A stretch of DNA of 64,000 bases from Escherichia phage vB_EcoM_IME392: sequence record MH719082.1. The stretch is one strand, 5' to 3'. Numbering within the stretch: position 1 is the stretch's first letter; the number at the start of each line of letters is the position of its first letter. Both the position numbers and the translations under genes were made by a program. This document shows, piece after piece, positions 25,141-25,774 of this stretch. Below the pieces are notes generated by a model, which worked only from the letters and a program-made list of their open reading frames with translations, had not been told where the DNA came from and searched no databases.

Positions 25141-25774
25141 AGTTACCTCTATGTTATTTATTTTAAACTGGATAGGGACTAATAAAGTAAATAGTAATTA
25201 AATACTTATTAATCTTCCTCTTATCTAATGCTAAGGGAAGCGTACTCGAGGAGTACAGAAGCTTAGCGAAGAGCGGAGTAACCATTTGATTTAAACAGTC
25301 ACCGTAGAGAGCGAAGGAGTCGCGCCCGCTTGAGGCGGCGCGACCTCCGCTTCACCAATCCTACCGGATGGACGCCTGCGACCACCCGAGCCTACCCCTG
25401 CCTCACTCACTAAAGCCACTTCGGGCTTTACCTCGTTCCGCTACGCGATACGCAGGCAGATAGCTACACTAAGTCCCCTGGAGATGGCTAGTAAGTATCC
25501 GTTACCAGACCATGTCCAACCTAACATTGACGAAGCCAGGGACTAGGCACTCCTCGCCAATAAGCTACATTAGGATTTATGTCCGTATTTCGAAGATAGG
25601 CCGATCGGGGAGACTATGCATTCATCTCTGCTCAACCAGGAAGCACCGATTAGGGTAAATACCCAAACTATCTTCTTAATGTCACTCCTCCCAGACCGCT
25701 TCGGGACTTAGCTTAAGTCTTATCCGAATAATCTGGCATCTACGACGGACCGTAGTGTATGGAGCGTACTGCAA
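25141..25774. other. GC-rich non-coding region with multiple stable hairpins (candidate structured RNA)
   Basis: No ORF of 60 aa or more on either strand. Hairpins include GGAGTCGCGCC-cgcttgag-GGCGCGAC(c)TCC, AAGCC-acttcg-GGCTT and the palindrome CCGATCGG; visibly higher GC than surrounding coding DNA. Confidence 0.3.

Follow-up and report, generated by a model that had tools for sequence, protein, structure and literature searches.

A gene-free block behind a conserved promoter-like motif in Escherichia phage vB_EcoM_IME392 is a candidate lineage-restricted non-coding RNA

Within a 64,000-nucleotide (nt) stretch of the genome of Escherichia phage vB_EcoM_IME392 (MH719082.1; hereafter the window), we analyzed the block at positions 25141-25774, which a preliminary description, made from the letters alone, had presented as a GC-rich, 630-bp non-coding sequence fitting a structured RNA. 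Together with EP_H11, the phage has been grouped as ‘RP13-like’ in a paper on thymidine (T)-hypermodified phages (PMC12686479); a 5-hydroxymethyldeoxyuridine (5-hmdU) DNA kinase encoded in the window agrees with this assignment. The minus strand up to ~29200 carries early and replication genes, and the plus strand after ~29200 carries the terminase, portal and structural genes. The genome is tightly packed except for a single large gene-free region of 2.4 kb (25141-27521). The block is not a stand-alone unit of 630 bp; it is the promoter-distal, last unit of this island, every surrounding gene is on the minus strand, and it heads a replication module comprising a helicase, a DnaB-like ATPase, RusA, topoisomerase II, a Rad50/Mre11-like protein and a 5′-3′ exonuclease. 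The remainder of the island (25807-27521, minus strand) contains a tRNA-Met (26105-26180) and a tRNA-Arg (26650-26725), both called on the minus strand by ARAGORN and Rfam, as well as tRNA-like fragments, structured spacers and three further copies of a promoter-like motif. In this lytic-type phage genome, 330 nt separate tRNA-Met from the start of the block downstream. Island content is mosaic, with cassettes gained and lost from lineage to lineage; judged by its predicted contents, the ‘empty’ 2.4-kb region of this phage group is a multi-unit RNA island.

The sole GenBank phage match to the block is Escherichia phage EP_H11 (OP688485.1, 111 kb), at 94.4% identity. Look-ups in Logan furnished five genus-level contigs (L005-L009) and one more distant phage, represented by contigs L010 and L082 from the same Sequence Read Archive sample, with terminase and helicase 87% and 79% identical, respectively. 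The genus-level sequences form three lineages: the window with L008 and L009, EP_H11, and L005 with L006 and L007.

The block is non-coding. Its longest open reading frame (ORF) is 48 amino acids (aa) long, all six frames contain TAA, TAG and TGA, and the relatives carry 1-2-nt indels; the view that neither strand holds a credible ORF was thus borne out. With all three stop types in every frame on both strands, stop-codon recoding was ruled out as well. The block is divisible into two domains of differing composition. The putative transcript would begin with a 339-nt 5′ domain (25433-25771, minus strand, no ORF) and continue into a GC-rich 3′ domain (25214-25432, minus strand, 58% GC). The GC richness ascribed to the whole block holds for 25230-25550, at 56-58% against 43-49% in coding controls, but not for 25433-25771, which at 48.7% lies at the upper end of the coding-control range.

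Flush with the block on the minus strand is a perfect copy of a 35-nt promoter-like motif (ACGCTCTTTTGATGAGTCAAAAGGCTGTTAAATTG, 25772-25806) that contains the extended -10-like element TGTTAAATT. The motif has the consensus CCGCTCTTTTgnnnggTCgAAAGGCTGTTAAAnTG, and four copies are present in the island, the other three matches lying at 27299-27333, 27482-27516 and 27540-27574 on the minus strand. The minus strand holds 15 occurrences of the 16-nt core of the motif, all within 1-29200, against 0.9 expected by chance; copies are found, for instance, at 1679, 3815, 5554, 7895, 8736, 12086, 18114, 23321, 24307 and 25772, with further copies at 27299, 27482, 27540, 28145 and 29169. Across the 15 copies the layout is CCGCTCTTTTg-N-TCgAAAGGCTGTTAAAnTG, terminating in the extended -10-like TGTTAAAnT. 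Eleven of the 15 sit 16-81 nt upstream of minus-strand start codons, many of them followed by GAGG within ~10 nt of the inferred start. On the plus strand there is a single match (27325-27340, two mismatches), which lies in the island and forms a palindrome with the 27299 copy. A simple sigma-70 consensus scan did not call the motif, which has no -35 element. From its placement, the 35-nt motif would represent the phage’s own early or middle promoter class, and the 15 copies probably mark out units of early or middle transcription in these phages, for which annotation is poor. The copy preceding the block is kept in all genus-level relatives, and the motif is also found in the more distant L010, L014, L015 and L082.

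Because a perfect motif copy abuts the block, a minus-strand transcript from ~25765 is predicted, and a minus-strand RNA starting near this position is the putative product. The preliminary description had left the strand uncertain, setting a plus-strand hint from C-UUCG-G-type loops against the minus-strand transcription around them. These are really six-nucleotide loops (ACUUCG on the plus strand, CGAAGU on the minus strand) or lie inside stems, and are not canonical tetraloops; the promoter motif, the folding energy and the orientation of the genes all favor the minus strand. The minimum free energy (MFE) of the block is -224.4 kcal/mol for the minus strand and -186.6 kcal/mol for the plus strand, the minus strand folding better because many of the pairs are G-U.

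The 5′ domain is constrained in sequence. Its pairwise divergence across the three lineage pairs is 1.8%, 2.9% and 1.2%, against 17.3%, 13.4% and 12.9% at fourfold-degenerate sites of seven flanking genes for the corresponding pairs (Fisher p = 4e-15, 4e-8 and 1e-11), and is comparable to that of first and second codon positions. This low divergence stops sharply at both edges of the domain: adjoining segments diverge by 10-25%, with the 3′ domain at 25230-25432 diverging by 10-15% between pairs and the spacer upstream of the promoter by ~24% between the window and the other two lineages. The palindrome CCGATCGG is present in this domain as described, at 25601-25608. An RNAalifold consensus of five distinct sequences contains 194 pairs, nearly all of them invariant; the predicted fold of the 5′ domain is without covariation support because the available relatives are >=97% identical there.

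In the 3′ domain, sequence evolves fast and hairpins are kept. Contig L082 starts inside the block, and its first ~150 nt are homologous to this domain; despite a sequence difference of ~40%, three hairpins (HP1-HP3) are retained, with some pairs changed on both sides. HP1 (25307-25353, minus strand) is a long, irregular GC hairpin of 19 bp with a bulged G and a CUCAA loop. It encloses the stem that the preliminary description had reported as an 11-bp GC helix at about 25315-25347; the stem exists, at 25319-25344 within the 19-bp helix, but the continuous 11 bp do not, the plus strand offering 8 bp, a bulge and 2 bp. Within the genus, indels at the HP1 apex preserve pairing (CUCAA, CCUGAAGG, CUCCAGGG). 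The L082 version has 20 bp with the identical CUCAA loop and bulged G; at the apex one G-C pair has become C-G and one C-G pair has become G-C, and the lower stem differs in sequence with complementarity kept. Both versions (19 and 20 bp) have the length of an RNase III substrate (about two turns, ~20 bp). Next to it, a hypervariable hairpin (GCUCGGGUGGUCGCAGGCGUCCAUCCGGU, 25363-25391, minus strand) has an invariant stem base and an apex that differs in sequence in each of the three lineages, with two apical pairs changing on both sides (columns 392:399 and 393:398). HP2 (GUACUC-CUC-GAGUAC, 25241-25257, minus strand) is invariant in the genus and becomes GGACUC...GAGUCC with an enlarged loop in L082, one U-A pair being replaced by G-C through changes on both sides. 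HP3 (CUUCC...GGAAG, 25214-25240, minus strand) precedes a conserved AUUAAUAAG; in L082 it reads CCUUCC-GUAA-GGAAGG and is followed by the same AUUAAUAAG. An AU-rich hairpin, GGUGACUGUUU...AAAUGGUUACU (25277-25303, minus strand), is weakly predicted and for the window only, its sequence differing in EP_H11 and L005. HP1 and HP2 (relative to L082) and the hypervariable hairpin (at its apex) show compensatory change; by this comparison the 3′ hairpins are real conserved helices, of RNA or of DNA. Covariation among relatives, to which the preliminary description had looked for support, is therefore found for HP1, HP2 and the hypervariable apex, and not in the 5′ domain, where informative variation is lacking.

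The block ends in an AU-rich tail (25141-25213, minus strand) that lacks the promoter motif and carries the Shine-Dalgarno sequence (GAGG) of a 263-aa gene (24349-25140, minus strand). The encoded protein weakly matches the DXD region of glycosyltransferases (Pfam Gly_transf_sug, E = 5.5e-4, under the curated cut-off), and its homologues occur only in the EP_H11/IME392 genus. Neither a promoter motif nor a terminator was found between the block and this gene, so the gene would be read through the block. On the minus strand of 24900-27800 no terminator-like site was detected, and no U-tract adjoins the block hairpins, HP1 being followed by CUCCUUCG and HP3 by AUUAAUAAG. In L082, the block runs straight into a promoter copy ~50 nt before a 104-aa gene, the orthologue of the 105-aa gene of the window, and the 263-aa gene and AU-rich tail are absent. 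It follows from this arrangement that the block is more than a leader for the 263-aa gene and that the conserved unit is promoter plus block; the 263-aa gene thus appears as a genus-specific insertion behind that unit.

Thermodynamics does not set the block apart. MFE z-scores relative to the block’s own shuffles are -4.2 (minus strand) and -2.2 (plus strand) over 634 nt, and -3.0 over 542 nt, with -1.1 for the 5′ domain and -2.1 for the 3′ domain. Sixteen coding segments matched in length and strand gave -2.24 ± 1.79, with a minimum of -5.8. As the coding controls score similarly, we discarded the MFE z-score as evidence; the low absolute folding energy is largely a composition effect. The preference of the preliminary description for a functional RNA over spacer DNA is supported in part, by the promoter motif, the 5′ constraint and the retained 3′ hairpins, and not by exceptional folding relative to coding controls.

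No described RNA family accounts for the block. With all 4227 families of Rfam 15 (cmscan, gathering thresholds), the two tRNAs are the only elements of the 64-kb window to pass; relaxing the filters and the cut-off (E <= 10) over 2.8 kb and 0.7 kb yielded no family for the block. Its best matches are hairpin-level (E = 0.8-5, 9-22 bits, against thresholds of 40-100 bits), with none to RNase P, transfer-messenger RNA (tmRNA), 6S, group I/II introns, ROOL, GOLLD, OLE, HEARO or Y RNA; the scan against RNase P, tmRNA, group I/II introns, 6S and known small RNAs that had been put forward at the outset thus came back empty even at E <= 10. ARAGORN found no tRNA or tmRNA in the block, calling only tRNA-Met and tRNA-Arg outside it. 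Two further candidate identities were rejected. Remnants of tRNAs were ruled out, as 25130-25830 holds no tRNA-clan match and no ARAGORN call, and a 9-nt word, AGAUGAAUG, common to the block and the E. coli RNase P RNA, is a coincidence (~0.9 such words expected by chance). The block has no blastn match in E. coli genomes and plasmids, and is therefore not captured host DNA.

The island is equally restricted. IMG/VR searches with the 263-aa protein and with the terminase returned no close relative, and alignments of terminase and helicase there recovered relatives of <=66% and <=43% identity, respectively, none of them with tRNAs or a block of this kind in the vicinity of the terminase. An island of this type is also missing from Acinetobacter phage Ab1-TPeters and Ralstonia phage RP13, and across the relatives with terminases 37-66% identical (IMG/VR, Ab1-TPeters, RP13) neither tRNAs nor a homologous block lies near that gene. 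Two promoter-motif patterns gave single chance matches only in IMG/VR, and a helicase alignment against Joint Genome Institute (JGI) metagenomes reached 44% at best. In 123 collected loci (1.5 Mb), blastn and nhmmer searches with the block found nothing besides L082 and L010. By these searches, island and block occur in the EP_H11/IME392 genus and the L010/L082 phage and nowhere else. Short-read assemblies repeatedly break inside the island: L007 at a promoter copy, L010 at tRNA-Met, L082 in the block and L124 63 nt ahead of the 263-aa gene. The breaks in L005-L010, L082 and L124 are probably caused by the repeated 35-nt motif or by strain variation. In the distant relative, the ends of L010 and L082 fall precisely on either side of the 5′ domain, which as a result of such breaks was not recovered.

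Taken together, a model for the block emerges. We rate the chances as even that it is the template of a stand-alone or processed, lineage-restricted phage non-coding RNA (ncRNA) belonging to no known family. The RNA would be ~520-560 nt long, transcribed from the minus strand and started at ~25765 from the early- or middle-class promoter copy at 25772-25806. Its 339-nt, sequence-constrained 5′ domain would carry the function, and the GC-rich 3′ domain, a series of hairpins in which sequence drifts and helices are kept, would most likely serve to delimit the RNA on its 3′ side and to protect it there. HP1, at ~20 bp, would be long enough for RNase III-type processing that separates the RNA from the downstream message. 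In the EP_H11/IME392 genus, the 263-aa gene would have entered downstream of the block and depend on read-through for its expression; in the L082 phage, the unit would end at the next promoter. A bolder and more tentative version of this model makes the RNA the founding member of a new class: a large (~0.5 kb) ncRNA of thymidine-hypermodified ‘RP13-like’ coliphages with a dedicated early or middle promoter and a ~340-nt, sequence-constrained core that may act in trans during infection, for example as a protein-binding scaffold or decoy, as the counterpart of ROOL/GOLLD in Gram-negative lytic phages.

Several observations weigh against a stand-alone ncRNA. No intrinsic terminator was found, and in this genus the RNA would therefore double as the physical 5′ leader of the 263-aa mRNA. 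Some coding stretches, such as 22542-22841, are equally conserved in all three lineage pairs, and a mosaic recombination history may contribute to the low diversity of the 5′ domain. Substitutions in predicted 5′-domain stems keep pairing five to six times and break it three times, which is chance level and provides no covariation support; the contig of the one more distant relative recovered lacks the 5′ domain; and the folding z-score is ordinary relative to coding controls, being weakest (-1.1) in the very domain that is conserved.

One candidate trans activity was tried and set aside. When antisense targets were sought in the window, the best candidate was a perfect complementarity of 14 nt (E = 0.12) at 33461-33474; nucleotides 297-310 of the block RNA (25462-25475) would there pair with the plus strand 17 nt before the ATG (33491) of a 478-aa gene, probably by chance.

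By context, the nearest analogues of the proposed ncRNA are the T4 tRNA-cluster stable RNAs and ROOL/GOLLD, and the resemblance to either would be one of analogy, with no homology. The end of the T4 tRNA cluster yields stable RNAs (species 1 and 2, rnaC and rnaD) of ~140 nt that are transcribed and matured with the tRNAs. Like these, the block would specify a non-tRNA RNA next to the tRNA genes of a lytic coliphage; unlike them, it is fourfold larger and has a promoter to itself, and it is unrelated to them in sequence. ROOL and GOLLD (RF03087 and RF01998) are ncRNAs of ~580 and ~800 nt, respectively, that often lie by tRNA genes in phages and prophages and are possibly co-transcribed with tRNAs (PMC5737381). 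The block, at ~540 nt, is similarly phage-borne and located 330 nt downstream of a tRNA cluster, but has no covariance-model match even at E <= 10, and with no such match the multistem-junction/pseudoknot core of those RNAs was not found in it. ROOL and GOLLD moreover span several phyla, whereas the block is limited to one Enterobacterales phage lineage and has its own promoter. ROOL, GOLLD and the T4 stable RNAs are all large phage RNAs by tRNA genes that are still without known function; an E. coli phage that can be grown in culture, EP_H11 or IME392, and that carries a promoter-defined 0.5-kb candidate would offer an easy genetic system for such RNAs, and this work defines a 35-nt promoter-class motif for a poorly annotated phage group. 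The narrow lineage keeps the present significance modest.

The early operon could alternatively use the block as a cis-acting leader or processing region, its hairpins serving as RNase III/RNase E sites or 5′ stabilizers that set the stability or translation of the 263-aa, 105-aa and later messages; we consider this unlikely, if far from negligible. Transcription of the 263-aa gene through the block, with no promoter motif or terminator between them, is what such a leader would entail, HP1 has the size of an RNase III substrate, and the conservation of structure alone in the 3′ domain is typical of processing and stability elements. The early transcripts of phages T7 and lambda contain RNase III processing hairpins, which HP1 resembles as an irregular, bulged helix of ~20 bp, conserved in structure, in an early polycistronic region. 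However, HP1 makes up 47 nt of the block and leaves the conserved 5′ domain unexplained, a constrained stretch of 339 nt far exceeding the needs of a processing hairpin. In L082, moreover, the block is followed by a promoter for the next gene and the 263-aa gene is absent, and other promoters of the class lie only 16-81 nt from their genes.

It is rather improbable that the block has no function of its own and is GC-rich filler or decayed cargo (tRNA or homing-endonuclease genes) in a recombination-prone tRNA island, its low diversity reflecting recent shared ancestry. The gain and loss of cassettes in the mosaic island, the ordinary folding z-score, the equal conservation of some coding stretches and the limitation to a narrow phage lineage would all be accommodated. 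Recent ancestry would nevertheless have to produce low divergence in all three pairs at once, with sharp edges and 10-25% divergence in adjacent non-coding DNA. The block also carries no tRNA-like signal, the promoter copy is perfectly conserved, the 3′ hairpins survive sequence change in L082, and the genome otherwise tolerates almost no non-coding DNA.

We give little credence to an element acting at the DNA level, be it a transcription-primed origin (with an R-loop or primer RNA, as for ColE1 RNA II or T4 oriF/oriG) or a packaging or protein-binding site. ColE1 RNA II and the T4 oriF/oriG transcripts are origin transcripts, and the block is comparable to them as a putative promoter-driven, ~0.5-kb non-coding transcription unit heading replication genes; its predicted transcript is G-rich (plus-strand GC skew of -0.11 to -0.18 across the block), conservation of its 5′ domain is at the sequence level, with no excess of folding energy, and in distant relatives a non-coding gap rich in repeats lies close to the terminase gene. 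Yet the G excess is no larger than in neighboring minus-strand genes and is ordinary for them, and the cumulative skew turns at ~29200, where transcription diverges, away from the block. Iterons and an AT-rich unwinding element were not found in the block, which thus differs from the ColE1 and T4 origins in having neither a downstream unwinding element nor a skew switch. The gaps in the relatives are AT-rich and non-homologous.

That the block belongs to a described family (RNase P RNA, ROOL, GOLLD, group I/II intron or tmRNA) and has diverged too far for covariance models is hardly credible: the context is ROOL/GOLLD-like, being large, by tRNAs and in a phage (PMC5737381), but nothing emerged among 4227 Rfam 15 families even at E <= 10, nor any tRNA or tmRNA from ARAGORN.

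The island contains additional elements, all on the minus strand of the window unless noted. Directly 5′ of tRNA-Met, 26181-26300 harbors a ~95-nt element with a 12-bp closing helix (26189-26200/26271-26282). The same architecture is present at 139-262 (minus strand) of L010 with another helix sequence (GAGCGAUAGG/CCUAUCGCUC against GAGAGCUGGG/CCCAGUUCUC); given this clear helix covariation, the element may be a second candidate structured RNA of the island. Two tRNA-like pieces were called by neither ARAGORN nor Rfam: a 7-bp T-arm minihelix with a UUCGACU loop and a ...CACCA end, 5 nt after tRNA-Met (26066-26100), and a ~100-nt element at ~25922-26024 with a T-arm (GGGUUCGAUUCCC), a 5-bp acceptor-like stem, a CCA end and a non-standard core. 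EP_H11 has both pieces (98-99% conserved), and L005 has neither. An uncalled, conserved tRNA-like gene that is missing from the window occurs in EP_H11 (L001, in the tRNA-Gly/tRNA-Arg interval) and at ~320-405 (minus strand) of L010; its acceptor, D and T arms are normal, and its anticodon loop carries an insertion of ~24 nt (GCCCACUUAGCUCAG...CACAG-GAAAGCUUCGAGAGAACAAGGUGU-CUGUG...GGUUCGAAUCC...).

Farther upstream in the island, 26813-26905 encodes a 30-aa hydrophobic ORF (MINPLIVGLFCILYIANAVYVDGWESIIRQ) with a Shine-Dalgarno sequence, found in the window and in L008 (98% nucleotide identity over the stretch) and absent from EP_H11 and L005. It is followed, just before tRNA-Arg, by a hairpin with 23-bp arms at 26731-26807 (no strand assigned). 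Downstream of the motif copy at 27299-27333, 26941-27298 would be a promoter-driven non-coding unit of ~360-390 nt; it is 86-94% conserved in the genus, and a short stretch, GGACUAUCAAUCCCGC, is recognizable in L010.

Outside the island, more distant relatives (terminase 45-57% identical) possess an AT-rich, repeat-rich non-coding gap of 1-1.6 kb located 1-2 kb upstream of the terminase, as in L020 (7598-9184), L025 (8214-9254) and L037 (7827-8924). These gaps are not homologous to the island and contain no tRNAs; they may be regulatory or origin regions. Finally, 5577-6959 on the minus strand of the window encodes a full-length BCCT-family betaine/carnitine/choline transporter (Pfam E = 1e-92), an unusual cargo for a lytic-type phage.

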